Shown here: piece by piece, positions 7,841 to 30,722 of the stretch
Position numbering within the stretch: position 1 is the stretch's first letter
How the letters are laid out: each line of letters starts with the position of its first letter
DNA from: Rhodoferax sp.
GTDB lineage: Bacteria > Pseudomonadota > Gammaproteobacteria > Burkholderiales > Burkholderiaceae_C
Reading direction: 5' to 3'
Assembly (NCBI GenBank): GCA_031430225.1
Contig: JANPAZ010000052.1
Span: 1-54,479 of the forward strand
Length of the DNA stretch: 54,479 nt
Notes under the pieces: model-generated
The model's input: the letters and a program-made list of their open reading frames with translations, nothing else
Databases searched by the model: none
What the model was told of the DNA's origin: nothing
Position numbers and translations under genes: made by a program

Positions 7841-9361
7841 ATGATAGAGATACGACCAGCCCAGCGCTCGCAGGAGATTGAACTCAAGCTGGCACTGCCA
7901 GGGCAAGATATCCGCGAACTGACCCGACAAGTGAAGAATGCACGGCCAATCGCGAGTCAGAAAACACGCAAGCAGAGCCTGCTAAATACCTATTTCGATA
8001 CGCCCGACCAGAAATTGCATCAAATGCAGATTGCATTGAGGGTTCGTCAGATTGCTTCGGGCAAAGGAAATGCCTGGGTGCAAACCCTCAAGACAAACGG
8101 TGGTGGGGACTCAGCGCTGAGCAAGCGCGGCGAATGGGAAGTGGCGATTGGCAGCAGCGTACTCAGCATCGACGCGCTTGCCAATACGCCCTGGCAGGAT
8201 ATCGATCCGGATGGATCCCTTTTTCTGGAACTCGTCCCCTGTTTCACCACCCGTTTCGAGCGCACCAGTTGGGAGGTTCAAGACGAGAGGGGCAGTGTCA
8301 TTGCTGTGTCCTTTGATGTTGGGCAGATTGAAGCGGGCGAACGACATGCCCCAATTTGTGAATTGGAGCTTGAATTGCTTTCCGGCATTCCGGCTTCGTT
8401 GTTCGATGTGGCGGGCAGCATTTCGCAGACGGTGGCCGTCATACCTGCCAGCCAGAGCAAATCAGAACGCGGGCATGCGCTGGCACTGGGAACTACAGAT
8501 ATGCCCCAGCATTCGCGTCCCCCGAGACTGGCTGCGGTTCAGGCGGCGGACGAGGCGGCGACCCTGGTTCTGCGGGAAGTGTTTTCGCAGTTCACACAGA
8601 ATCTGGAGCTCATTCTGGTCACGGACAATCCGGAGGTTGTGCATCAGGCCCGCGTAGGCTGGCGCCGCCTCAAGACCGCTCTGCGTTTTTTCAGCCCGCT
8701 GTTACAGGCCGCGCCAATGCCTGATTTGTCACCAATGCGGCCGATGCTGAGAGCCATGGGTTATTTGCGGGATCTGGACGTGATGATGGCCGGGACGTTG
8801 CCAACCATTGAACGACCCTACGTCGCTGCTGACGAGGCCCGCCAAATCATCTGGGGCCACTTCGAAGCCGTGCTGGTGAAGGCGGCCCAGGCTGCGCGCA
8901 CTGAAGTGCGCCAGGCGATACGGGACCCTGCGGTGGGTTCTGCCCTGCTCGCCATGACGCGATTTATTGAAGATCGGGCTGAAGCGGACGAAAAAGAGTC
9001 TGGGCGCGAGTCCGCACCCGTCGGCGTGAAACCTTGGGCAGAACGCCGGGTGGAAAAGCTTCGCGAAAAACTGAAGTTGGCCCTGAAAAATTGCGTCGAT
9101 GCAGATGACCGGCATCGCGCACGAATTCTGGCCAAGCGCCTGAGATACAGCATAGAAGCTATGCAAACGGTCTTGCCAAAGCAGCGCGCTCGGCGATGGC
9201 TGAAACGGGCGACATCAATCCAGAATGAAATAGGTACCAGCAGGGACTTGCAGCGGTCCATACGTATTGCCGACGACTTGGGTGCCGACCCCGGTTTGCT
9301 TGAATTTCTGCGGGGCTTTGGCCTGGGCACTGAACAAGGCCAGGACCGGCTGAGATTTTGA
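7841..9361 (+). CDS. CYTH and CHAD domain protein (triphosphatase-like / polyphosphate-granule-associated type)
   Basis: N-terminal ExExK signature ('QEIELKLALP'). The C-terminal half carries CHAD-like helices ('VHQARVGWRRLKTALRFF', 'AKRLRYSIEAM'). Confidence 0.8.
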   Translation: MIEIRPAQRSQEIELKLALPGQDIRELTRQVKNARPIASQKTRKQSLLNTYFDTPDQKLHQMQIALRVRQIASGKGNAWVQTLKTNGGGDSALSKRGEWEVAIGSSVLSIDALANTPWQDIDPDGSLFLELVPCFTTRFERTSWEVQDERGSVIAVSFDVGQIEAGERHAPICELELELLSGIPASLFDVAGSISQTVAVIPASQSKSERGHALALGTTDMPQHSRPPRLAAVQAADEAATLVLREVFSQFTQNLELILVTDNPEVVHQARVGWRRLKTALRFFSPLLQAAPMPDLSPMRPMLRAMGYLRDLDVMMAGTLPTIERPYVAADEARQIIWGHFEAVLVKAAQAARTEVRQAIRDPAVGSALLAMTRFIEDRAEADEKESGRESAPVGVKPWAERRVEKLREKLKLALKNCVDADDRHRARILAKRLRYSIEAMQTVLPKQRARRWLKRATSIQNEIGTSRDLQRSIRIADDLGADPGLLEFLRGFGLGTEQGQDRLRF

Positions 9362-9465: not shown

Positions 9466-11259
9466 ATGTCAGAAACCCGCAATCGTCGTCACTTCATCGT
9501 CAGCAGTGCTTCAACCGCCGCTGCGCTGGCATCTGCCTCTGCTCTGGTTGCCTGCGGTGGTACGAGCACACCGCCAGCGGAGTTCAAATACGGTGTTGCC
9601 AGTGGCGATCCGCTCGCAGACAGGGTCATTTTGTGGACCCACGCAAAAGTCCCGAATTCAAGCGAAGCGGTTGGGTTGACATGGCAACTTGCCGCCGACG
9701 CCAGCTTTACTGTTGTCTCGAAATCAGGGCGCGTGACCGCTTCGCCAAATGAATCCCATACCGCCAAGGTTGACGTCACCGGCCTGACTGCCGGAACCGC
9801 CTATTTCTACCGCTTCGTTGATGACGCGGGCGTTGTATCCAGTGTGGGCACTACGCGGACGTTGCCTGCGGCCGACGCAGCAAGCGTGAAATTTGCGGTG
9901 TTTTCATGCGCGCTCTTTTCTGAAGGCTACTTCAACACCTACGACGCGGCGTCAAAGTCTGACGCGCAGTTCGCCATCCACCTGGGTGACTACATCTACG
10001 AGTACGGCTCGGATCCGGCCAAATTTGGCAACAAGGATGCCGTAGCGTTAAGCCGCGTCACCAGCCCGGCGAACGACATCGTGAGCCTGGAAGACTACCG
10101 CACCCGATATGCGCTCTATCGGTCTGATCTCAACCTTCAGGCGCTGCACGCAAAGATGCCGTGGATCACCGTATGGGACGACCATGAATTCACCAACAAT
10201 GCCTATGTGGGTGGCGCTGAAAACCACAACGCCGCAACCCAGGGCGACTGGACTACCCGCAAAAACACGGCCGCGCGGGCCTACCACGAGTGGATGCCGA
10301 TCCGCACGCAAGACGCCGCCAACCTGCTGAAGATCTATCGCCGATTTGATTTTGGCAAGCTGTTAACCCTGCACATGCTGGACACCCGCATTGAAGGGCG
10401 AGACCGCCAATATGACAGCTTTGGTGATGCAGATGGCGGCATTGGTCGCTACGTGTCAGGCCTCACTCCGGTCAATGGCGCGCTGCCTGACTCGACCCGC
10501 AAGATGATCAGCACCACACAGCAGGATTGGTTGGTGAGTGGCATGGCCGCTTCAACCGCGACCTGGCAGTTTCTGGGCAACCAGGACATCATGGCCCGCA
10601 TGTGGTTTCCGGGTTCCGTGTTGCAGGCACAGGCTACAGCAACGGCAAGCCCCACAGCCGCCAATGCCCAGGCAGTGCAAACCGCCATCAGCAGATACCT
10701 CACAGCCAAGGCAACCCGTGCCGCTGGCGGTGTGGCCGCATTGTCAGCTGAGCAAAGCGCGTTGCTGAGCCCAACCACCAACCCGCGTTTGCCCTACAAC
10801 CTTGACGCCTGGGACGGCTACCCGACGAATCGCGAGTTGATCTTTCAAACGGCCAAGGCTCAGGGTAAAAAGCTCGTCGCACTGTCGGGCGACTCTCATA
10901 ACGCATGGTTTACCAACCTGACGACACTCGCAGGTGAAAAAGTGGGTGTGGAATTTGCAACATCGTCGGTGACGGCACCCGGCTTTGAGAGCGCCGGTCT
11001 GGGCTCGTTGGCCAGTTCGCTCGACGGCACCGTGCTGATTTCGCAGTTGGGCAATGCAGCGGTGGGTGCCGGTTTGGGGCTGGTGGATGACCTCCACTAC
11101 AGTGACACCATCCGCCGCGGTTACTTGCTGATGACGGTGACCAGCGCGCCTGTCAAAGGCGAGTTTGTCTTTGTCAGCACGGTCAAGTCCAAAACCTACT
11201 CGGCAGCGATCGGTAAAACCATTACGGTTCCATCAGTTGGCGCTCCCATCTATTCATAA
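9466..11259 (+). CDS. phoD: Alkaline phosphatase/phosphodiesterase PhoD, Tat-exported lipoprotein
   Basis: Twin-arginine signal 'NRRHFIVSSASTAAALASASALVACGG' with a lipobox Cys. 'GVASGDPLADRVILWTH' and 'VWDDHEFTNN' are PhoD hallmarks. Confidence 0.85.
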   Translation: MSETRNRRHFIVSSASTAAALASASALVACGGTSTPPAEFKYGVASGDPLADRVILWTHAKVPNSSEAVGLTWQLAADASFTVVSKSGRVTASPNESHTAKVDVTGLTAGTAYFYRFVDDAGVVSSVGTTRTLPAADAASVKFAVFSCALFSEGYFNTYDAASKSDAQFAIHLGDYIYEYGSDPAKFGNKDAVALSRVTSPANDIVSLEDYRTRYALYRSDLNLQALHAKMPWITVWDDHEFTNNAYVGGAENHNAATQGDWTTRKNTAARAYHEWMPIRTQDAANLLKIYRRFDFGKLLTLHMLDTRIEGRDRQYDSFGDADGGIGRYVSGLTPVNGALPDSTRKMISTTQQDWLVSGMAASTATWQFLGNQDIMARMWFPGSVLQAQATATASPTAANAQAVQTAISRYLTAKATRAAGGVAALSAEQSALLSPTTNPRLPYNLDAWDGYPTNRELIFQTAKAQGKKLVALSGDSHNAWFTNLTTLAGEKVGVEFATSSVTAPGFESAGLGSLASSLDGTVLISQLGNAAVGAGLGLVDDLHYSDTIRRGYLLMTVTSAPVKGEFVFVSTVKSKTYSAAIGKTITVPSVGAPIYS

Positions 11260-11797: not shown

Positions 11798-13675
11798 TCA
11801 AGGCTTCCATTCATCCCACGCCTTTAGCGCCCGCATCAGGGGGCGCTTTTTCGATTGATGGGCCTGCATGCGTTTCAAGATGTCGTCCAGCGTACGCATG
11901 GCGGCAAGAATATGAGGGCCTTTGTTCAGCATGACGCACTCCGCGCGGGCGCCCATCGCGGCGTCTGTGATCTCGGCCCGTGAGGGCATGCCTGTTTTTG
12001 CCAGCCCCTCCAGAACCTGCGTAGCCCACACCACAGGCGTATGTGCGCTCTCGCAAGCCCACAGGATTTCCTCCTGCACTTCTGCCAGACGTTCAAAACC
12101 GCACTCCACCGCCAGGTCACCCCGGGCAATCATCACTCCGGTTGCCGGACCCGTCATCGCAGCCAGCAACATCTCGGGCATGTGCTCGAACCCAAGCCGG
12201 GTTTCGACCTTGAGGATAATTCCCATGTGCGAGGCGCCCAGTTCGCCCAGCCGCTGGCGCAATGCGCGCACGTCACCCGCCGACTGGGCAAAGGACAGGC
12301 CGACGATGTCAGCGTATTTCGCAACGGTCGCCAAGTCATCCAGGTCTTTCTCTGTCAGCGCGGGCAGATCCAGGCGAGTATCCGGCAGGTTGATGCCCTT
12401 GTCCGCAGCAAGCTTGTCACCGCCGTCACGGGCAACCGTGATCTCAACCTCGATACGCTTTGCCCCCGCCTTTCGCACAACACCGCCAATATGGCCGTCA
12501 TCAAACCAGATGTGTTCGCCCTTTCGGACCCGTTTCAAAACGGAGGGCAAGGTGCACGCAATCGAAGCGGGTTTGGCGCGACGATTCTTGCTGGCTGGCA
12601 CGGCAGCATGTCCAAGCCCCTGTGCCACCACACGCAGAATATCGCCGCATTGCAAGTGCAATTGGCCCGCTGAAACAGGAAGATCGTGCAAATGCGTCTC
12701 CTGCAGTTTTTGCCCTTTGTGCCGCAGCCGCAGGCGTGTGTCTGTCGTGAGGTAGGCGGTGCGCTCGCACTGGGTGATAACACCGGTCGATTCTCGGCTC
12801 ACCACGGTCAGTCGCCGCTCGGCATCGCGTGCGTCGGTCAGGTCAATCGTGTCACCCACCTTGAGCCGCTCAAGCCACGTTGCGTCAACGCCCAGGCTCA
12901 GCACAGCCCCCTCGACAGCGAAGACCGAACCAGCGGCGCGCAAACCCACACGCGTTGGTGCAACCACGCGACCCAATGCATCCCGCTCCGGCTTGATTTT
13001 GACAGCAGCAACGCCGCCTTCAATCGGACCGGTTCGTAATTTGGGGCCCCCCAGGTCCATCAGTATCCGGACTTCCCGCCGGGCCGCAGCGGCTAGCGCG
13101 CGCACTCGGTGCGCCATGGCGATCCACTCTTGGGCGCTGTCATGCGCGCAATTGATGCGCGCGATGTCCATCCCGGCCGTGATGAGACCCGCCACAAGCG
13201 AGTCATCGTGAGCCGCCTCGCCAGGCAAGGTCACCATCATGCGTACCGTGCGCTCCTTGGGCAAACCACCAAACAGGGCGTCAGCATTGCGTGAGAGCAA
13301 TTCACTGCCTCGCGCGAAGCTGTCAGGCACTTCCCTGGATTGCAAAAGCCAATCCTGTCCTGCAAGATCGCATAAGATGCCCAGCACTTTGTGAATACTC
13401 GCCAACACGTGGTTTTCTGCCCGGCCAAGCGACGAGAGCCCCATGCAGGCCAGACGCTCCTGGAGATCCCGCATGTCAATACCCCGCAGCGCCATGTAAT
13501 GGATCAGGTTGATGGCACTGGGAAGGTGCGCCGGCTCGATCATGCGCAGCCAGGGTTCGAACTTCGCCTGCTGGTCCAGAATCACTTTTCGGATCGCAAG
13601 CAGTTCCTTGATCAGGCTTTCGACGGCCTTGACGTCCCACAGGTGAACGGGCGCTGGACTGGATTTCGATTTCAT
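11798..13675 (-). CDS. Pyruvate-kinase-family protein with an atypical architecture
   Basis: PK barrel motifs are present: 'MDIARINCAHD', 'GGPKLRTG', 'KVETRLGFEHMPE', 'MIARGDLAVE', 'ATQVLEGLAKTGMPSRAEITDAA' and 'VMLNKGP'. The ATG at 13675 has GAGG upstream. See the corresponding finding for the architecture. Confidence 0.75.
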   Translation of the reverse strand: MKSKSSPAPVHLWDVKAVESLIKELLAIRKVILDQQAKFEPWLRMIEPAHLPSAINLIHYMALRGIDMRDLQERLACMGLSSLGRAENHVLASIHKVLGILCDLAGQDWLLQSREVPDSFARGSELLSRNADALFGGLPKERTVRMMVTLPGEAAHDDSLVAGLITAGMDIARINCAHDSAQEWIAMAHRVRALAAAARREVRILMDLGGPKLRTGPIEGGVAAVKIKPERDALGRVVAPTRVGLRAAGSVFAVEGAVLSLGVDATWLERLKVGDTIDLTDARDAERRLTVVSRESTGVITQCERTAYLTTDTRLRLRHKGQKLQETHLHDLPVSAGQLHLQCGDILRVVAQGLGHAAVPASKNRRAKPASIACTLPSVLKRVRKGEHIWFDDGHIGGVVRKAGAKRIEVEITVARDGGDKLAADKGINLPDTRLDLPALTEKDLDDLATVAKYADIVGLSFAQSAGDVRALRQRLGELGASHMGIILKVETRLGFEHMPEMLLAAMTGPATGVMIARGDLAVECGFERLAEVQEEILWACESAHTPVVWATQVLEGLAKTGMPSRAEITDAAMGARAECVMLNKGPHILAAMRTLDDILKRMQAHQSKKRPLMRALKAWDEWKP

Positions 13676-13841
13676 GAACTTAACCTCACTAGGTCCGAGT
13701 CTGTTCCAGATCCGTGAAGGCTGGATGACAAAGCGAAAACACCTGTTGCCCGTTATGTGCGACAGGGCACACACGCAGGTGACCCATTCACCTACATTGC
13801 GCAATGCTTAGTCTGTTCACTGCACCTCAAAGGATTTATCC

Positions 13842-20365: not shown

Positions 20366-21193
20366 TCAGCCCTTCGCGCCCAAAACAGGCAAGGGTTTGA
20401 GCGATGTGCCAAATTTTTCTCGCAGGGGTTCATGTCCCAATGGCGGGAATTTGAATTCCGTGTCTGGCACCTTGCGCTCGGGGATGTGGTCCAGCAGATG
20501 CCGAATCAGGGTCAGTCGGCCCCGGCGCTGGTCGTTAAAGTCAACCAGCGTCCAGGGTGATTTGTCGGTGTGGGTGGCCTTCAACATCGCATCCCGTGCC
20601 AGACCATACTCGGCGTATTTTTCGCGCGCCTGCACATCTATCGGGCTGAGCTTCCAACGCTTGAGTGGGTCGGCCAGCCGCTCTGCAAAGCGCTCCTCCT
20701 GCTGCGCCTGGTCAACTGTCAGCCAGTACTTGAACAGCAAAATGCCATCGTCCACCAGCATTTTCTCAAACACCGGTGCCTGCTTCAGGAAGTCTTTGGT
20801 CTGCTGCTCTGTGCAAAAACCCATCACACGCTCAACCCCCGCGCGGTTGTACCAGCTCCGGTCAAACAGCACGATTTCACCCGCAGCGGGCAGATGCGCC
20901 ATGTAGCGCTGAAAGTACCATTGGGACTGCTCACGTTCACTGGGCTTGGACAGCGCCACAACATGGGTCTGGCGTGGGTTGAGCGTGTCGGCAATTGCCG
21001 AGATAACACCGCCCTTACCCGCCGTGTCACGCCCCTCGATCACCAGAACCAGCCGTTTGCCGGTGTGCTGCAGCCAGCGTGCGACATCATTGAGTTCAAA
21101 CTCGAGTTCGGCGAGCTTCTCGTAGTACTCGTCTTTTCCCAGCTTGCCCGGATTGCCGCTTTTTCCGTTTTTGCCAATTTTTGCTTTTGCCAT
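20366..21193 (-). CDS. ppk2: Polyphosphate kinase 2
   Basis: 'EGRDTAGKGGVI' is a Walker A-like motif. 'FDRSWYNRAGVERVMGF' and 'RWKLSPID' are PPK2 signatures. Confidence 0.9.
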   Translation of the reverse strand: MAKAKIGKNGKSGNPGKLGKDEYYEKLAELEFELNDVARWLQHTGKRLVLVIEGRDTAGKGGVISAIADTLNPRQTHVVALSKPSEREQSQWYFQRYMAHLPAAGEIVLFDRSWYNRAGVERVMGFCTEQQTKDFLKQAPVFEKMLVDDGILLFKYWLTVDQAQQEERFAERLADPLKRWKLSPIDVQAREKYAEYGLARDAMLKATHTDKSPWTLVDFNDQRRGRLTLIRHLLDHIPERKVPDTEFKFPPLGHEPLREKFGTSLKPLPVLGAKG

Positions 21194-23169: not shown

Positions 23170-23991
23170 TCAAGCCCGCAGGAAATCCAGCAGGTCCTTG
23201 GTCAGGCGATCCTTGTCGGTTGCAAACAGGCCATGGGGCGCGCCGTCATATGCAATGAGCGTGGACCGTGCAATCGCATTTGCCGCTGCACGGCCTGAGT
23301 TATCGAACGGAACCGTCTTGTCAGCCGTGCCGTGAATGATCAGTGTGGGCATCGTGAACGACGGCAGGTCAACGCGAAAATCCGTGCCTGCAAAAGCCTT
23401 CGCACTCTCCAGCGTAGCGCGCAGACTGGCTTGCATAGCCATGGTGTGCGTCCACGTCAGCACCTCATCGCTGACAGGTCTTGAAACCAGCCCAACGCCG
23501 AAAAAGTCCTTGAAGAATCCAGTGAAGAATTTGGCCCGGTCCTGTTGCATGGCCTGTGCCATCTGGTCAAACGCTGATTGATCGATGCCGCCAGGGTTGT
23601 CCTGCGTTTTCAGCATGAACGGAACCACTGAAGAGATCAGGACGGCTTTGGCGATTGAGTTCCCGCCATGACGCGACAGATAGCGAGCCACTTCTCCACC
23701 GCCCATTGAAAAGCCAACCAGAATCGCGTTCTGCGCGCCTGTTTGCGAAATGACGGCGGCCAGGTCGTCGGCAAACGTGTCGTAGTCGTAGCCGCTCCAC
23801 GGTTGCGACGAACGGCCAAACCCCCGGCGGTCATAAGCGATGGTGCGAAAGCCCGACTGGGCCAGTGAGATGGCCTGGTCGTCCCAGGTGTCTGAAGTCA
23901 AAGGCCAGCCATGCATCAGTATCACCGGTTGCCCCGCGCCCCAGTCTTTCACGTAAAGCTCGGTTTTGTCTTGGGTAATAACGGTATTCAT
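23170..23991 (-). CDS. Alpha/beta hydrolase of the non-heme chloroperoxidase / arylesterase type
   Basis: 'LYVKDWGAGQPVILMHGWPL', 'GFSMGGGEVARYL' and 'IIHGTADKTVPF' match this family closely. Confidence 0.85.
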   Translation of the reverse strand: MNTVITQDKTELYVKDWGAGQPVILMHGWPLTSDTWDDQAISLAQSGFRTIAYDRRGFGRSSQPWSGYDYDTFADDLAAVISQTGAQNAILVGFSMGGGEVARYLSRHGGNSIAKAVLISSVVPFMLKTQDNPGGIDQSAFDQMAQAMQQDRAKFFTGFFKDFFGVGLVSRPVSDEVLTWTHTMAMQASLRATLESAKAFAGTDFRVDLPSFTMPTLIIHGTADKTVPFDNSGRAAANAIARSTLIAYDGAPHGLFATDKDRLTKDLLDFLRA

Positions 23992-24118: not shown

Positions 24119-25351
24119 CTAATGGACAGCACGCAAAGCCAGGACCGCATTGGCCCCGCCAAACGCGAACGAGTTCGAAAGCATGGTTCTGGCTGACACA
24201 CCGGTGCGCACCTGGTTGGGAACATAGTCCAGGTCGCAGGCCGGATCGGGCTCAAGAAGATGAACAGTTGGCAGCGCCACCTCGTGCTGCATGGCCAACA
24301 AAGAAAGTACACACTCCAGCGCACCGGTGGCGCCCAGCAAGTGCCCATGCATGGCTTTGGTGGCGCTGATGGGCAGCCGACGCGCTCGCTGACCAAAAAC
24401 AAGTTTGATCGCTTCGGTCTCCACGGAATCATTCGCCAGAGTCCCTGTACCGTGCGCGTTGATGGCGTCCACGTCCGCCGGCGCAATGCCTGCCGATTGA
24501 AGTGCAACCGTCATCGCAGCAGCCTGTCCTTCTGCGCTGGGACGGGTAATATGACTGACATCGGTCGAAAGTCCATACCCGATGACTTCGCCCAGAATGG
24601 TCGCACCGCGCGCAACAGCTTGTGCCCAGGGCTCCAGAACCACCATGGCCGCGCCCTCACCCAGCACCATGCCACTGCGATTTTTTGAAAACGGTTTGCA
24701 TGACGCTGACGGATCGGCTTCGTCAATGGTCGCAAGGGTATGCAGGGCCTCCCAGGCCTTAAGCGATCCAAACGACAGCGGCGCCTCGGCCCCACCGGCC
24801 ACCGCAAGGTCAAGACTGCCACTGGCAATACGCAACCAGGCTTCACCAATCGCGACCGCTGAAGACGAGCATGCCGTCGAATAGGTCAGACTGGGGCCGC
24901 AAAACCGGTGCTCCAGACCAATCCAGGCGGCGGGAGAGTTGTGCATTCCCATCAGCACAGTGAATGGCTTGATGCGGTCGGACGCCTCGCCGTAGAGCGT
25001 CCGGTACCCGTCGTCCATGCTCTGGGATCCGCCCATTCCGATGCCCACAAAAACTCCGGCCCGACTGCGCTCGGTCGGACCCGGGTCACATTCAGACTGG
25101 GCAAGCGCCTGATTCGCCGCGACCACCGCAAACTGGCTCACACGGTCCAGCATGCGCAGCTTCGCAGGTGTGAAGTGTTCCGCGCCGTCAAACCGGGACG
25201 ACGCAACCAGCGGCGCGACAAGCCGGTCTGTGAAAGCGGTTTGAAGGCGGTGAATGGCTGAGCGCCCCGCAAAGGCGTTTCGATAGACCTCATCAGTACC
25301 CGTGCCCAAAGGCGTCACTGCCCCCATCCCCGTGACGGCAACCCGCCTCAT
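24119..25351 (-). CDS. Beta-ketoacyl-ACP synthase (KAS I/II type) of the PKS operon
   Basis: Active-site Cys in 'YSTACSSSAVAIGEA'. His residues in 'NAHGTGTLANDSVE' and 'KAMHGHLLGATG'. The start overlaps the ACP stop (ATGA). Confidence 0.9.
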   Translation of the reverse strand: MRRVAVTGMGAVTPLGTGTDEVYRNAFAGRSAIHRLQTAFTDRLVAPLVASSRFDGAEHFTPAKLRMLDRVSQFAVVAANQALAQSECDPGPTERSRAGVFVGIGMGGSQSMDDGYRTLYGEASDRIKPFTVLMGMHNSPAAWIGLEHRFCGPSLTYSTACSSSAVAIGEAWLRIASGSLDLAVAGGAEAPLSFGSLKAWEALHTLATIDEADPSASCKPFSKNRSGMVLGEGAAMVVLEPWAQAVARGATILGEVIGYGLSTDVSHITRPSAEGQAAAMTVALQSAGIAPADVDAINAHGTGTLANDSVETEAIKLVFGQRARRLPISATKAMHGHLLGATGALECVLSLLAMQHEVALPTVHLLEPDPACDLDYVPNQVRTGVSARTMLSNSFAFGGANAVLALRAVH

Positions 25352-25638
25352 GGCGACAAAGAGACATACACTGTCGCCACTTCGGCCTGGGGGTCAGGCC
25401 CGTGTTGCGCCGCTATCAAGCCATCGATGTACGCCACCACGTCACCCACGGTGGTCAGGTCTACCGGGTCCGGCGGCAAGGTAATCTGAAACGCATCTTC
25501 AACATTGAACAGCAGCTCCGCAACACCCAGAGAATCTATTCCCAATTCATCCAGCGACACATCCGGCGTCAGCGTTTCGGGTGCCGTCCTGTAGTCACTG
25601 ACGAGAATTTTGCTCAAACGCCTGAAAGTGGTCGTCAT
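25348..25638 (-). CDS. Acyl carrier protein
   Basis: 96 aa, with the phosphopantetheine site 'LGIDSLGVAEL'. The internal ATG at 25638 was chosen because the longer ORF would run into the upstream gene. Confidence 0.8.
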   Translation of the reverse strand: MTTTFRRLSKILVSDYRTAPETLTPDVSLDELGIDSLGVAELLFNVEDAFQITLPPDPVDLTTVGDVVAYIDGLIAAQHGPDPQAEVATVYVSLSP

Positions 25639-25652
25639 GCCATACCCCTGTT

Positions 25653-26903
25653 TCAAATCTGGATAGGTTGGGCGGCAAAGGCCGGGAATGCGCCCGTGTC
25701 GACAACGCAATTCGCCTTGCCACTTAACTGGGCGCCCAGCGTCAAAAGGCCAGGCCAGACGTTGGCGCAAGCGATGAATGGCACAGCCAGAGAGGGCCGC
25801 ATGGCAACGTTGGCGAAAATGCTCGCCACGTGCAACCGCAACGCAAACGCACCACGCCATTGCGCCGCGTAGCGCGCTGCCACTTCTCTTTGCCACGATT
25901 TATCAAGGGATGCGCCTGACCGGCCGCAAACCAGCAGCTGTGCACAGAGCATCCAGGCGGACTGCAGGGCCATGCTCATGCCCTCACCGATGATCGGGTG
26001 CGCTTCGCCAGCCGCATTGCCAATACGAAAGAGTTCGTCATCCGCCCGCAGGCGGACCCCAGGATCAATGGGGCCGGCTGCGAGCCATGGCCCGTCTCTG
26101 GCCGCACCTTGCAGCACCAAGCGCACGTCCTCGCATTCTTTCTTGAGCAGGGCTTCGACGACGTCACCCGCGCTTTGCCCGGGCAGTGACCATCGGCTTG
26201 TCTCCAGCCGGTCACGGCGGATGCAGCAAGCGACCGTCGTCACACCGCCACCCGCCATCACCATACCCCCATAGCCACCCTTGAATGACAGCACGGGAAG
26301 CACCCCTGGCTCCAGAGACGCGCCCCGAAAGTTGGCTTTGAAGGCCAGCAGGTCCGCACCGCTGCGGTCCAATCGGCGGTGTGGTCGACCGGATGGCAAT
26401 GTCTCCCAGGAACCATGGGCTGCAATCGCCACACGTGAGCGCAGAGTCAGCCCGGATGGCAAATCATCACGACGGACTTCAACCCGCCAGGCACCGGCAG
26501 AACCATCAATCGACCGAACTGTGCAGGGTTGAAACAGGTGTGCGCCCGCAGCCCTGGCCTGGGCGACCAACAACGTGTCAAGGGTCTCCCGGCCTAAAGC
26601 ACGGCCCCACTGGCTCGCTGGGTTTGGCGCCGCAGGTAGGTTGGCCACAGCCTTACGATGGCCATGCATCAGTGCCACTTTGTGCAGCGCGGGTCCCGCC
26701 GAAGCGACCAGTTCACTGCTGACACCCAAAGCTGCAAGCAATGGCAGGTTGCCAGCCCCGATGCATTCGCCGCAAACCTTTCTGCGCGGGAAAATTTGCT
26801 TCTCAACCAGCGCCACCGACCAGCCCGCTCTGGCCAACAAGATGGCGGCGGCTGATCCCGCAGGACCGGCACCCACAATCACGGCGTCGAAATCGTTTTG
26901 CAT
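25653..26903 (-). CDS. FAD-dependent oxidoreductase (geranylgeranyl-reductase / aromatic-hydroxylase-like)
   Basis: 'DAVIVGAGPAGSAAAILLARAGWSVALVEK' is a Rossmann GxGxxG motif, followed by 'KVCGECI'. The ATG at 26903 overlaps the methyltransferase stop (ATGA). Confidence 0.8.
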   Translation of the reverse strand: MQNDFDAVIVGAGPAGSAAAILLARAGWSVALVEKQIFPRRKVCGECIGAGNLPLLAALGVSSELVASAGPALHKVALMHGHRKAVANLPAAPNPASQWGRALGRETLDTLLVAQARAAGAHLFQPCTVRSIDGSAGAWRVEVRRDDLPSGLTLRSRVAIAAHGSWETLPSGRPHRRLDRSGADLLAFKANFRGASLEPGVLPVLSFKGGYGGMVMAGGGVTTVACCIRRDRLETSRWSLPGQSAGDVVEALLKKECEDVRLVLQGAARDGPWLAAGPIDPGVRLRADDELFRIGNAAGEAHPIIGEGMSMALQSAWMLCAQLLVCGRSGASLDKSWQREVAARYAAQWRGAFALRLHVASIFANVAMRPSLAVPFIACANVWPGLLTLGAQLSGKANCVVDTGAFPAFAAQPIQI

Positions 26904-27646
26904 CAGGTCACCCCTACCCGTTGAGCCTGAAAGCAATGACTGAAAAGGCCAGACGAACACTCGTCGATTCGCCATTCGGCCCCTTCATCGGGCCATAGGT
27001 AGGAGATCTCATTACCCATGAATCCTGCCTGCACACTAAGGACCGCATCTTCACGCGTCACAGCGTTGGCACCGATCGCACCAACCATATAGCTGGCCAA
27101 CAGGGGCAGCCAGGCGCGGCGCGGCTCGCAGGCGATGAATCCGTCAGTGCGCTGGGCTACCGCGCCGAGCAATGTCGCAAGTTCTTGACCTTCAAAGTGG
27201 TGCAAAAAAAGGTTGGTGACAATGAGGTCCCACCGGCCCGCTTTTTGGCCTTTCACCAAGGGATCGACCGGCGCCTTGGCCCAGGCATGCACGTCAACGA
27301 CATGCGCCGCGGCCAACCAGTTCACCCCTGCATAGCTCGTAATCGTGTCACGCGCCACCACCGCCTGGCGGTCCAGCAGGGACAAGTCCGCACGAAAACC
27401 GCTGGGTGCAAGTACCCTCGCAACCTCCAGCATGAGACTGCCATCACCGGCACCCAGTTCAAGCACCCGCAAGGGTCCTATGGCACGACGTGAAGCGGTC
27501 ATGCGCTTCAAGGCGCGCTGCAAAATGCCACGGGTGCCCATGGCCCGGTGAATGCGCTGCAGATCGCGCCGGGAACGCATGGCATCGGGATGATTTTCTG
27601 CAAGGCCGTCCAGTGTCTCATGCATGACGATTCGGGTTTTCATCAT
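26903..27646 (-). CDS. Class I SAM-dependent methyltransferase
   Basis: SAM motif I is 'RVLELGAGDGSLMLEVA'. Both ends overlap the neighbouring genes by 4 bp. Confidence 0.75.
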   Translation of the reverse strand: MMKTRIVMHETLDGLAENHPDAMRSRRDLQRIHRAMGTRGILQRALKRMTASRRAIGPLRVLELGAGDGSLMLEVARVLAPSGFRADLSLLDRQAVVARDTITSYAGVNWLAAAHVVDVHAWAKAPVDPLVKGQKAGRWDLIVTNLFLHHFEGQELATLLGAVAQRTDGFIACEPRRAWLPLLASYMVGAIGANAVTREDAVLSVQAGFMGNEISYLWPDEGAEWRIDECSSGLFSHCFQAQRVGVT

Positions 27647-28701
27647 TGCACCTTCAGCAAAGCACCGTGGCAGCTAAAGCCCGCACCAAACGATGAGAGC
27701 CACCACCAGCCGCCGGGCGCTTCGTCAGTTAGCGCGGCCTCCAGGACAAAGTAGATAAATGCGCTCGACAGGTTGCCGTATTCACGCAACATCGCAGCGC
27801 TGTAGCGAAAGTCCTCGCCTTCCAGCTCGAAGCGCCTTTCAAGCGCCAGCAGCACATCCCGTCCACCCGCATGCATGATCCACGCGCTGACATGGGCTGG
27901 GCGCATGCCTGCACGGGTCAGAACCGTCTCAAGCACACGGTGGGCGTAGTCGGCAGCCAGCGTGGGGACGCCACGGGTCAAAATGTTGCGCAACATTCCC
28001 CCGCGTTGTTCGAACATCAAGGCGCTTCTGTGGGCAGGCTCGGTGAGTGACGCGCTGTCTACCCATTCGATACGACGCGTGGTCTGCCTGGGAAGGCGTG
28101 ACACCACGGCAGCCCCGGCCCCATCTCCAAAGAGGCAAGCGCTGATGAGCACCCCGGGGTCGTTGTCAAGATACATGGCGGCACTGCTCACTTCCACACA
28201 AATGGAAAGCACATGTTCATGCCCTGCGGAAAGCAGCAAGGCGCGCGCAAGCTGCAGGTTGGGCAAAGCCGCCGCACAGCCCTGCCCCACCAGGTCGTAA
28301 GCCTGTACGTCAGCGCGCAGGCCCAATCGCTCTATGACATGGCCCGAAAGGCCAGGACAGACATATCCCGTGCATGTGCTAACCACAATCGCACCAATGT
28401 CTGCACCTTTCAGCCCCGCGCGTTCAAGCGCCCTTTCACCCGCGTTTGCTGCAAGCACGGGGGCATGCGCCAGAAAGCGTTGGGACAGCGTGTCCGGGTC
28501 AATGGTGAACACGTCTGACAGGCAGTCAACCGCCAGTCGCCTCGCCTCAATACCGTTGTCACGCTGCAAAACGGTGCGGGCAATAAAGTGGGACCGGACA
28601 TCGAGCCGGGCAAACCAATCAGAGCGCTGAAACGCGTCAAGGCAATCGGCCTTGGTATAGCGCGCTGGCGGGGTGGAAGTTCCGATTCCGCGAAAATACA
28701 T
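27643..28701 (-). CDS. Type III polyketide synthase (chalcone/stilbene synthase superfamily)
   Basis: The catalytic triad context is visible: Cys in 'VVSTCTGYVCPGL', His in 'WIMHAGGRDVL' and Asn in 'YGNLSSAFIYFVL'. Confidence 0.9.
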   Translation of the reverse strand: MYFRGIGTSTPPARYTKADCLDAFQRSDWFARLDVRSHFIARTVLQRDNGIEARRLAVDCLSDVFTIDPDTLSQRFLAHAPVLAANAGERALERAGLKGADIGAIVVSTCTGYVCPGLSGHVIERLGLRADVQAYDLVGQGCAAALPNLQLARALLLSAGHEHVLSICVEVSSAAMYLDNDPGVLISACLFGDGAGAAVVSRLPRQTTRRIEWVDSASLTEPAHRSALMFEQRGGMLRNILTRGVPTLAADYAHRVLETVLTRAGMRPAHVSAWIMHAGGRDVLLALERRFELEGEDFRYSAAMLREYGNLSSAFIYFVLEAALTDEAPGGWWWLSSFGAGFSCHGALLKVQ

Positions 28702-28735: not shown

Positions 28736-29146
28736 CTATTTGGTGCCCGGCATGGGTGTCAGGATCTCCTGAATCATGAAGGTGCCGTAGTGCTGTGCGG
28801 AGACCGCAAAACCTGACCTGGCCACATCCGCTACCTGCTCAGCGGTCTTGTCATCCGGCGCATGGACGATGAGAAAGCTGCAGCCCTCCAGAGCCAATAC
28901 GCGGTTGGCTTTCATCAGGTCGAGTTCATAGCCGAAAGATGCAAGAACGCTCACCGTCTCCAGTTCGGCGTCAATTTGTGCCATCATTTCTTCGGCGCTA
29001 TAGCGGGTAAGCGCGCCGGCGGCAAAACCTTTTGCGGCGAGCGACTCGGCGGCCTGTTGCAGCTCGAGTGCCGTGCGAAAAGTCATGACGGTATGGTCCA
29101 CAGGCTTGAACACACCGAAGGTCTCTGGTGGATTGGATTTGTTCAT
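28736..29146 (-). CDS. Hypothetical protein (136 aa) immediately upstream of the PKS gene
   Basis: ATG 29146 with AAGGAAA upstream. It ends 34 bp before the PKS start. No motif was recognised. Confidence 0.5.
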   Translation of the reverse strand: MNKSNPPETFGVFKPVDHTVMTFRTALELQQAAESLAAKGFAAGALTRYSAEEMMAQIDAELETVSVLASFGYELDLMKANRVLALEGCSFLIVHAPDDKTAEQVADVARSGFAVSAQHYGTFMIQEILTPMPGTK

Positions 29147-29455: not shown

Positions 29456-30535
29456 CTACTTTTGGCGGGGTCGCGTCAGCTTCGGCTGCACAGACTGCAA
29501 CTTGCCGGAACGCAATTCGACAACGGCCTTGGCCACAGCGCGGGCGACATTACGTGTTTCCTCCTGCACGGCTGCATCGCGGTCCAGCGCCTCATGGCTG
29601 GTTGCGTAGGGCTCGTAATACCCGATGTAGCGGTCAAGGTGGGCCTGCACACCCGCATCGATGAATCCCATCCAGTCCAGCCAGTCGCAAAGTGAGCGGC
29701 GCGAACTCTCAACACCAGCCACGTCACCATGGACCATGACGCCATAGGCCCGCCCTGCCAGATGCTGAGGATAGTCCCAGCCCGCCATCTCAAGCGCCTT
29801 TGCTTTATCGGCTTTCTTGCCAGAGGTCGTGGTGGGATCAGGATTTCCGCCGTCAGCACATACCAGCCGATCAATCATGAGCTTCAACGGGCTGGGGCTC
29901 TGGTACCAGTACACCGGCGTCAAAATGATCACGGCATGTGCCAGTGTCCACCGCTCATAGATGTCGGCCATCCAGTCATTGGTTTGATTCAACGCATGGT
30001 TGGGGTAACAACTGCAGGGCCAGTGGCACAGTGGCATCGCCGTTGACGCGCAGCCCTTGCAGGGATAGATGTTTCGCCCATACTCGGAGGTCAAATGGCT
30101 CAGATCAAGAACGTCAGTCTCGATACCGGCCTGTTCAAGCGTTTCGCGGGCCAACTCCAGTAATCTGAATGTCTTGGACTCCTCTCCAGGGCAGGTGCCA
30201 TCGTTGCGGGCGGACCCACAAATCAGCAACACTCTGGACGGAACCTGGGCGTCGGCCCAACGCAGGTGTGCTGCATCAAGTCGGGCACGGGTGGCAATCC
30301 ATTCTGTAGAGAGCTCGTAACCCGCATCTGCATATCCAGGACCGGCTTTGCGGGTCATGGGCGCCTTTCGCCCCTCGGAAAATGCACCCCAGGCGATGTC
30401 TTCGAGACGGGCGATGGATATATCTTCATCACGAAAGGCAGGGTCCATGAAGGCCGCACGAAACCGCACACTAAATTGAGCGCGATCAACGGGGGCAGGC
30501 GCCTGGCCTTTGCGAATTTGAATCACTTGAATCAC
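29456..30535 (-). CDS. Flavodoxin-fold NAD(P)H-dependent FMN reductase-like protein with a Cys cluster
   Basis: 'RVLLICGSARNDGTCPGE' and 'IILTPVYWYQSPSPLKLMIDR' are flavodoxin-like. 'YPCKGCASTAMPLCHWPCSCYP' is Cys-rich, as in iron-sulfur flavoproteins. GTG 30535 has GAAGGGA upstream; the ORF extends to a TTG at 30610. Confidence 0.65.
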   Translation of the reverse strand: MIQVIQIRKGQAPAPVDRAQFSVRFRAAFMDPAFRDEDISIARLEDIAWGAFSEGRKAPMTRKAGPGYADAGYELSTEWIATRARLDAAHLRWADAQVPSRVLLICGSARNDGTCPGEESKTFRLLELARETLEQAGIETDVLDLSHLTSEYGRNIYPCKGCASTAMPLCHWPCSCYPNHALNQTNDWMADIYERWTLAHAVIILTPVYWYQSPSPLKLMIDRLVCADGGNPDPTTTSGKKADKAKALEMAGWDYPQHLAGRAYGVMVHGDVAGVESSRRSLCDWLDWMGFIDAGVQAHLDRYIGYYEPYATSHEALDRDAAVQEETRNVARAVAKAVVELRSGKLQSVQPKLTRPRQK

Positions 30536-30722
30536 GGCGTGTCCCTTCGGGGTTTTGAAAAAGGTTACGGTAGACGTGAGTTGCCTGGTGGTCTGTGCGC
30601 TACCGAACAACGCCTTTAAGGCAGGCAGGCCCGATCAGGAATCGGGGCACGTCATGACTTCACTGAAGGTATGATGAATATTGAAACTCCTGCGACTCCT
30701 ACCCTTCAAGGAAATCATTCCC

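Follow-up and report, generated by a model that had tools for sequence, protein, structure and literature searches.

The contig JANPAZ010000052.1 of Rhodoferax sp. (NCBI assembly GCA_031430225.1), analysed here over a window of 54,479 nucleotides, carries five adjacent minus-strand genes for a polyketide synthase (PKS) of type III, a class I S-adenosylmethionine (SAM) methyltransferase (MT), a flavin adenine dinucleotide (FAD) enzyme, an acyl carrier protein (ACP), and a FabF-like ketoacyl-ACP synthase (KAS). The reading favoured here, with a probability of roughly 0.55, is that these genes form an operon for a tailored polyketide lipid, in which the ACP and the KAS build a dedicated acyl-ACP starter by way of the housekeeping type II fatty acid synthase (FAS II). 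A scan of species-representative genomes retrieved 359 relatives of the PKS, and in the locus analysis, which was made on the best 80 of these 359 (72–83 % identity), all five genes occur in the same order in 43 loci; together with the invariant catalytic residues of the encoded proteins, this places the arrangement beyond chance. Membership of the ACP and KAS genes in the PKS cluster is supported by their adjacency, which is kept in several orders of Betaproteobacteria although no further neighbour is conserved.

The five genes and their products

The PKS gene (28701–27643, 352 aa) is followed on the minus strand by the genes for the MT (27646–26903; 247 aa, or 246 aa if the second ATG is the start), the FAD enzyme (26903–25653, 416 aa), the ACP (25638–25348, 96 aa), and the KAS (25351–24119, 410 aa). 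An earlier sequence-only reading of the window had placed five minus-strand genes from 28701 to 24119, had assigned them to these same families, and had quoted short motifs from their products; all of the open reading frames (ORFs) and all of the motifs are present, and Pfam and NCBIfam back the family assignment of every one of the five genes. Its description of ATGA overlaps is correct for the PKS/MT junction (27646–27643) and the ACP/KAS junction (25351–25348) and has to be amended for the MT/FAD junction, which is TGATG with a 1-nt overlap (stop at 26905–26903, start at 26903–26901). The 14-bp gap that it gave between the FAD and ACP genes was measured as 14 nt from stop to start, and the tight operon layout that it described holds, with neighbouring genes that overlap or are separated by no more than 14 nt. 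The five genes are predicted to be read from one transcription unit. Four further contigs of this organism carry an identical PKS, and on these an independent gene caller returned the same five genes; one of the four belongs to NCBI assembly GCA_031411475.1. A promoter and terminator scan gave zero promoter-like sites and terminator-like matches below the shuffle expectation, which says nothing on transcript ends, and an Rfam scan of the window gave zero RNA families.

The PKS passes the Pfam cut-off of 27 bits for all three relevant families (FAE1_CUT1_RppA, 69.5 bits; Chal_sti_synt_C, 53.5 bits; Chal_sti_synt_N, 45.2 bits). The sequence-only reading had located the Cys, His, and Asn of the catalytic triad in STCTGYVCPG, MHAGGRD, and YGNLSSAF, and had proposed checking by alignment whether these residues reach the catalytic positions. 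Alignment to Gerbera 2-pyrone synthase (2-PS) brings all three residue types opposite the triad of that enzyme (C142, H277, and N310 opposite C169, H308, and N341), so that the contexts of the His (MHAGGRD) and the Asn (YGNLSSA) stand and the Cys has to be moved, since C142 lies in VGQGCAAAL and STCTGYVCPG pairs with the 2-PS loop CTTAGVDMPG. The triad is invariant in 81 family sequences, and the clade is marked by the motifs TCTGYxCPG, GQGCAAALP, LFGDGAGA, GMLRNIL, HAGGRD, GNLSS, and SFGAGFS. The equivalent of gatekeeper Phe215 (chalcone synthase (CHS) numbering) is F191, which is invariant in the family, and the position of the CHS gatekeeper Phe265 is occupied by an invariant Asn239; the latter is a known variation, because the CylI clade carries Asn or Gln at this site (PMC8086630).

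The AlphaFold (AF2) model of the PKS has a predicted local distance difference test score (pLDDT) of 93, and its Foldseek top 50 consists entirely of type III PKSs, with template modelling (TM) scores of up to 0.90. The top match is Mycobacterium tuberculosis PKS11 (TM 0.89, 26 % identity), and 2-PS and PKS18 are also among the closest. PKS11 and PKS18, which are long-chain alkylpyrone synthases of 353 aa and the nearest solved folds, align with the window PKS over its full length and share only 24–26 % identity and a different genomic context with it; identity to PKS11, PKS18, and 2-PS taken together is 24–27 %, and the best Protein Data Bank (PDB) sequence match is 2-PS. By sequence and predicted structure, the protein is identified as a bona fide type III PKS of a divergent clade, and the closeness of its modelled fold to the alkylpyrone synthases PKS11 and PKS18 points to a genuine type III enzyme of the long-chain kind.

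The MT carries the SAM motif I VLELGAGDGS and just exceeds the Pfam cut-off for Methyltransf_23 (27.3 bits vs a cut-off of 27), while its match to NCBIfam PRK06202 (53.6 bits) is below cut-off, and a search for sequence relatives in the PDB found none. It is encoded after the PKS in 75 of the 80 loci. The flavoenzyme matches Pfam FAD_binding_3 and belongs to the fold shared by geranylgeranyl reductase (GGR), flavin halogenases, and group-A monooxygenases. Its best NCBIfam matches are the GGR family model TIGR02032 (GG-red-SF; 93 bits vs a cut-off of 158.8), of whose xCGG motif the Cys is kept in the invariant KVCGEC, and QhpG (78 bits), which is also below cut-off. Within the flavoenzyme family, little or no variation is seen in the segments GAGPAG, FPRRKVCGEC (with CxxC), GGYGGMV, and GNAAGEAHPIIGEGMSMA. 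The versions in sister clades have 340–346 aa, and the window protein extends about 70 aa further at its C-terminus. Two cysteine pairs are invariant in the family, namely the CxxC C44/C47 (KVCGEC) beside the FAD-binding fold and the adjacent C226/C227 (ACCIRRD). The AF2 model (pLDDT 82) has ChlB4, FasV, GGR 3oz2, RadH, and CndH at the top of its Foldseek results at 15–23 % identity, with 3oz2 fourth in the list. SrsC of Streptomyces griseus is a UbiH-type hydroxylase, against which the GGR/halogenase fold of the window enzyme is to be set. Flavin-dependent halogenases are marked by WxWxIP and, downstream of a GE(S/A) motif, by a catalytic Lys. In the window enzyme an invariant GGYGGMV stands in place of WxWxIP and Pro54 in place of the catalytic Lys, and a role as halogenase was rejected; it had been considered because the top Foldseek matches are phenol and pyrrole halogenases and because the chlorination of hierridin C is unexplained (PMC8086630).

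The ACP matches Pfam PP-binding (PF00550, 47 bits) with the phosphopantetheine serine, Ser36, in GIDSLG; the serine of this DSL motif is invariant across the family. The protein has a C-terminal extension relative to AcpP and fails all 11 NCBIfam ACP cut-offs (for example, TIGR00517 at 40.3 bits vs 70.45), and its best PDB matches, all ahead of Escherichia coli AcpP, are AcpM, the specialised ACP 2kw2, and NodF. Because the ACP resembles carriers of the AcpM type, the acyl chain would probably be long. The KAS matches the N- and C-terminal ketoacyl-synt domains of Pfam and passes NCBIfam NF005589, a KAS II subfamily (403 bits vs a cut-off of 387), and it falls below the housekeeping fabF equivalog TIGR03150 (410.7 bits vs a cut-off of 493.75). 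Its C161/H300/H337, K332, and F395/F397 align to Thermus thermophilus FabF, and the active site is invariant in 41 sequences. Alignments of the KAS to FabF of Thermus and Firmicutes outscore those to FabF of Proteobacteria (T. thermophilus, full-length, 313 bits; E. coli, 266; Neisseria, 266; Burkholderia, 248), which marks it as an old paralogue and not a recent copy of the host gene. By these scores, the ACP and KAS are specialised paralogues rather than the housekeeping pair.

Conservation and history of the five-gene unit

The 80 loci come almost entirely from Betaproteobacteria, mostly Burkholderiales, and include Rhodoferax, Polaromonas, Curvibacter, Rubrivivax, Roseateles, Ca. Accumulibacter, and Propionivibrio as well as Methylophilaceae. 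The 43 five-gene loci span Comamonadaceae-type genera, Rhodocyclales, and Methylophilaceae, and many of the remaining loci are on truncated contigs. Strains with the five-gene arrangement include Polaromonas sp. CG9_12 (L080), Roseateles albus (L058), and Curvibacter sp. APW13 (L074), and Piscinibacter koreensis (L069) has three genes. Among the 43, the ACP–KAS pair is never inverted or set apart from the PKS–MT–FAD triad, and the spacing between the FAD and ACP genes is looser elsewhere than in the window (median ~98 nt, up to ~500 nt). Clustering of all flanking ORFs found no sixth gene common to more than 5 of the 43 five-gene loci. Two neighbours were rejected as cluster members, namely the downstream alpha/beta hydrolase (23170–23991), which is not conserved beside the cluster, and a 136-aa ORF upstream of the PKS (28736..29146, minus), whose homologues occur in 2 of the 80 loci and in neither beside the PKS; with no conserved flank, both lie outside the unit.

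A whole-library search showed the wider PKS family to be of modest size, with 195 representatives (50 % clustering, E ≤ 1e-30) whose identity to the window PKS runs from 67 % down to ~35 %. Five relatives at 55–61 % PKS identity (from Verrucomicrobia, another Burkholderiales lineage, and others) all have the order PKS>MT>FAD without ACP and KAS, a deltaproteobacterial relative (36 % identity) has PKS and MT, and a relative at 41 % has the PKS alone. Within the 80 loci, PKS–MT–FAD only was counted in 16 of those with enough downstream sequence. Fifteen of these 16 group together in one clade of 20 leaves (Caldimonas, Rhizobacter, Piscinibacter), which is deeply nested among lineages with five genes; the remaining one, L047, is placed apart in the tree, and the basal Methylophilaceae branch has all five genes. 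Since the sister clades have the triad only, the ACP and KAS genes appear to have been appended once to an older PKS>MT>FAD triad, and the simplest history is that of an old and widespread triad to which the pair was added at the base of the betaproteobacterial clade of ≥72 % identity, with later loss in one subclade and, sporadically, outside it (L047, L014). The PKS–MT–FAD triad would then be a recurring tailoring module. One metagenome-assembled genome (MFD04967.bin.2.106) holds two such triads on different contigs (L071 and L076, 77–78 % PKS identity to the window), which represent either a duplication or a mixed bin.

Triad-only sisters, the five-gene majority, and the nested losers together amount to a natural gain and loss experiment, which could show what the starter module contributes. 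In the PKS search, more than 7,600 of the best 8,000 candidate sequences scored E ≤ 0.001, mostly from metagenomic sources. The cluster is thus common in metagenomes, and its hosts are ecologically important Betaproteobacteria of freshwater, glaciers, soil, and wastewater. The membrane lipid or quinone that it may produce could be widespread and yet have gone unrecognised.

Known systems, proposed pathway, and alternatives

Type III PKSs are classically free-standing and CoA-dependent, and the exceptions known so far are fed by type I synthases or by ligase-loaded ACPs. Conserved pairing of such an enzyme with a FabF-like KAS and a discrete ACP would add a third route of supply. In the library searched, no paper was found on the five-gene set, nor on any operon that joins a type III PKS to a FabF-like KAS and a discrete ACP. 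ACP-bound starters have been reported for Ars, CylI, and Gcs and predicted for HidC, and they are supplied in these systems by a type I synthase, a ligase-loaded ACP, or the primary FAS (PMC8086630). In the Azotobacter arsABCD, Myxococcus ftp, and cyanobacterial cyl systems, a carrier-bound acyl starter is passed to the type III PKS (PMC8086630), but Ars and Cyl rely on multidomain type I FAS/PKS proteins where the window has a discrete type II pair, and Cyl (PMC8086630) and, as the sequence-only reading had it, Ftp employ an acyl-AMP ligase. Starter delivery of the ftp type was set aside, with no AMP-binding protein in the 54-kb window or the sister contig, and so was delivery of the ars type (a type I FAS, ArsA/ArsD, beside the PKS), with no multidomain synthase found. 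In gene content the ACP–KAS pair resembles the rhizobial NodF/NodE and AcpXL/FabF-XL pairs, in which a stand-alone ACP lies beside a FabF paralogue as in the window, and which borrow the housekeeping FabD, FabG, FabZ, and FabI for an unusual acyl chain. These pairs feed acyltransferases, for Nod factor and lipid A, and not a polyketide synthase.

The first three genes can be compared with three-gene operons for phenolic lipids. The sequence-only reading had likened them to S. griseus srsABC, and the published order of srsABC and of Mycobacterium smegmatis pkqABC, PKS–MT–oxidoreductase, bears this out (PMC9927152), as does the cyanobacterial order hidC>hidA>hidB, one of the three-gene arrangements described beside hidABC (PMC8086630). 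The srsABC and pkqABC operons yield an alkylresorcinol and then a methylated alkylquinone, with a proposed sequence of resorcinol formation, methylation, and hydroxylation to the quinone (PMC9927152), and unlike the window they have no ACP or KAS. The same logic of type III PKS, class I SAM MT, and FAD oxidoreductase, again without a dedicated ACP or KAS, is found in hidABC (hierridin) and in planctomycete mtr–fdo–t3pks, where the G. maris T3PKS alone produces C15/C17 alkylresorcinols in C. glutamicum and the addition of Mtr and Fdo adds one C-methylation (PMC10896814). The hid-like sequences used for comparison are synthetic genes recovered from the PDF supplement of PMC10896814 and are damaged by optical character recognition (OCR), so that identities to them are approximate. 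The hidden Markov model (HMM) of the window flavoenzyme family matches the OCR-recovered and frameshifted Fdo sequence of G. maris with E 6e-11, in several colinear segments that include FPRxKVCGxC, which makes the window enzyme a clear but distant relative by sequence; Fdo has KVCGCC where the window enzyme has KVCGEC. The MT family HMM matches the noisy G. maris Mtr sequence weakly and colinearly (E 0.002), over the N-terminal region and the SAM motif only. The window PKS is ~26 % identical to the R. baltica hid-like enzyme over a long stretch, no nearer than to plant enzymes, and 22–32 % identical to the OCR-damaged G. maris PKS over fragments, whereas planctomycete and cyanobacterial members of the HidC clade are 48–55 % identical to one another; placement of the window PKS in that clade was rejected. 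With a clear Fdo match, a weak Mtr match, and a PKS at ~26 %, the triad looks like a distant cousin of the hid type built around a different PKS clade.

In the pathway proposed here, the ACP would be phosphopantetheinylated and malonylated by host AcpS and FabD, neither of which is encoded in the window. The KAS would condense an acyl primer with malonyl-ACP and, together with host FabG/FabZ/FabI, produce a dedicated acyl-ACP in the manner of NodF/NodE and AcpXL/FabF-XL. The type III PKS (C142/H277/N310) would take this acyl group as its starter, add a few malonyl-CoA units, and cyclise the chain to an alkyl-resorcinol or alkyl-pyrone head group, after which the SAM MT would methylate the ring and the flavoenzyme would oxidise or reduce the product, so that the membrane receives an alkyl-(hydro)quinone or a methylated phenolic lipid. 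We infer that the ACP and KAS act before the PKS and that host FAS II is used, and the same applies to the chain length, the ring type, and the reaction of the flavoenzyme. On this pathway, organisms with five genes are predicted to make different, likely longer, alkyl chains than their three-gene relatives. The cluster would extend the known phenolic-lipid operons rather than break with them, with its chemistry predicted by analogy. The product suggested by the sequence-only reading, a membrane phenolic lipid or alkylquinone, is accordingly retained as far as the analogy of operon order goes; as the PKS (≤~27 % identity to characterised enzymes) is not close to characterised alkylresorcinol synthases, it is not a prediction from homology. 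Similarly, of the proposal that the ACP and KAS form a starter module, the part that holds is that the pair belongs to the cluster, while its role is deduced and the relatives at 55–61 % do without it.

Several results weigh against the starter-module pathway. Genes for reductive FAS/PKS enzymes, an acyltransferase, a phosphopantetheinyl transferase (PPTase), and an acyl-AMP ligase were all found to be missing from the 54-kb window, in line with the remark of the sequence-only reading that no acyl-AMP ligase or acyltransferase is in view, and in the lack of reductive FAS, acyltransferase, and PPTase genes the recruitment of host enzymes has to be assumed. The triad is maintained without ACP and KAS both in sister clades and in the nested subclade that lost the pair. 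In addition, five-gene and three-gene loci are separated by only 3 of the 352 PKS alignment columns, all three unremarkable, and a comparison of the two groups gave no ACP-docking signature in the PKS beyond them, which argues against an obligatory, co-adapted hand-off between ACP and PKS. Identity of the PKS to the solved, characterised, and planctomycete enzymes compared does not exceed ~27 %, so that ring type and starter length cannot be predicted by homology, and the activity of Fdo could not be demonstrated for the planctomycete homologue of the flavoenzyme (PMC10896814). The trees used for the history are neighbour-joining trees without bootstrap support, and the history tree is rooted by an outgroup.

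A bolder form of the starter-module reading, which is possible though doubtful, would make the locus a hybrid type II/III system whose PKS takes ACP-tethered, specially elongated or beta-keto starters to give methylated alkyl-(hydro)quinones or phenolic lipids of a new class, with a ring oxidation by the CxxC flavoenzyme that is new to its fold. If so, the lipid might be an alternative membrane electron carrier or a dormancy or stress lipid in genera that are abundant in the environment (Rhodoferax, Polaromonas, Accumulibacter).

Three other explanations are less likely than the starter-module reading. It is unlikely that the product is a small aromatic compound of the phloroglucinol or dihydroxyphenylacetate type, for which the ACP–KAS pair would supply a short beta-ketoacyl or acetoacetyl-type starter. 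Such a product would suit the short length of the PKS (352 aa), its best PDB sequence match to the short-starter enzyme 2-PS, and its best curated NCBIfam match, which is DpgA (full-length, 147 bits). However, the DpgA score is far short of the cut-off of 425 and partners of the DpgB/C/D type are not present, the nearest fold is that of the long-chain enzyme PKS11, the ACP resembles long-chain carriers, and the planctomycete counterparts of the MT and the FAD enzyme go with C15/C17 alkylresorcinol synthases (PMC10896814).

A hybrid type II/III assembly, in which the PKS primes the ACP in the manner of FabH/KSIII and the KAS then extends a non-reduced or partly reduced chain on the ACP instead of on CoA, is regarded as quite improbable. 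The PKS shares the thiolase fold and the Cys-His-Asn triad with FabH and also matches Pfam ACP_syn_III and ACP_syn_III_C and the NCBIfam FabH models (93 bits), an initiating synthase, an elongating synthase, and an ACP make a complete minimal condensing set, and the ACP and KAS genes are translationally coupled. Yet the QGC, HxGG, GNxSS, and LFGDGA motifs and the Foldseek neighbours are those of a type III PKS, with no FabH in the top 50 matches of the model, and every active-site residue is kept in the 55–61 % relatives and in the nested subclade, both of which lack ACP and KAS, so that the PKS does not need this ACP.

That the ACP and KAS are merely unrelated neighbours, a separate lipid module (e.g., for a special fatty acid) kept beside the triad by inherited synteny, is very improbable, since the genes stay adjacent and in the same order in several orders whose flanks are otherwise all different, the pair is never parted from or inverted against the triad in the 43 loci, and the FAD and ACP genes of the window are separated by a 14-nt gap without a terminator-like signal, even though the triad stands alone in many lineages, the FAD–ACP spacing is looser in other loci, and the PKS sequence is almost unchanged with or without the pair.

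Surroundings of the locus

The flanks of the window consist of ordinary chromosomal genes, including ftsH–folP–glmM, transporters, ProQ, and PPK2. The hypothetical 136-aa ORF upstream of the PKS gene has no Pfam or NCBIfam match and is called as a gene on the sister contigs. It lies on the strand of the PKS gene, from whose start its end is 34 nt upstream, has AGGAAG in the spacer, and may be co-transcribed with the operon in the window. Further upstream, a FMN_red/flavodoxin-like protein of 359–384 aa with a Cys-rich insert (YPCKGCASTAMPLCHWPCSCYPNH) is encoded at 29456-30610 (minus strand). At 5 of the 43 five-gene loci (L002, L023, L033, L041, and L064), a homologue with 69–83 % identity is encoded no more than 8 kb from the PKS cluster, in positions and orientations that vary between loci; this could reflect shared synteny or a loose link, e.g., as a quinone reductase.

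Genes related to phosphate and polyphosphate lie at 7841-9361 (plus), 9466-11259 (plus), and 20366-21193 (minus) and encode a CYTH–CHAD protein, a PhoD-like phosphatase, and a PPK2 polyphosphate kinase, the last named from the sister contig. At 11798-13804 (minus), a 668-aa ORF has a pyruvate-kinase barrel at residues 405–627 only, and its N-terminal 400 residues are without a match; its start may be over-extended, or the N-terminal region may be novel. Outside the window, the predicted protein P0241 of 4818 aa has 12 separate PKS-matching stretches (28 % identity, 702 bits) and would thereby be a giant in which a unit resembling a type III PKS is repeated about a dozen times.

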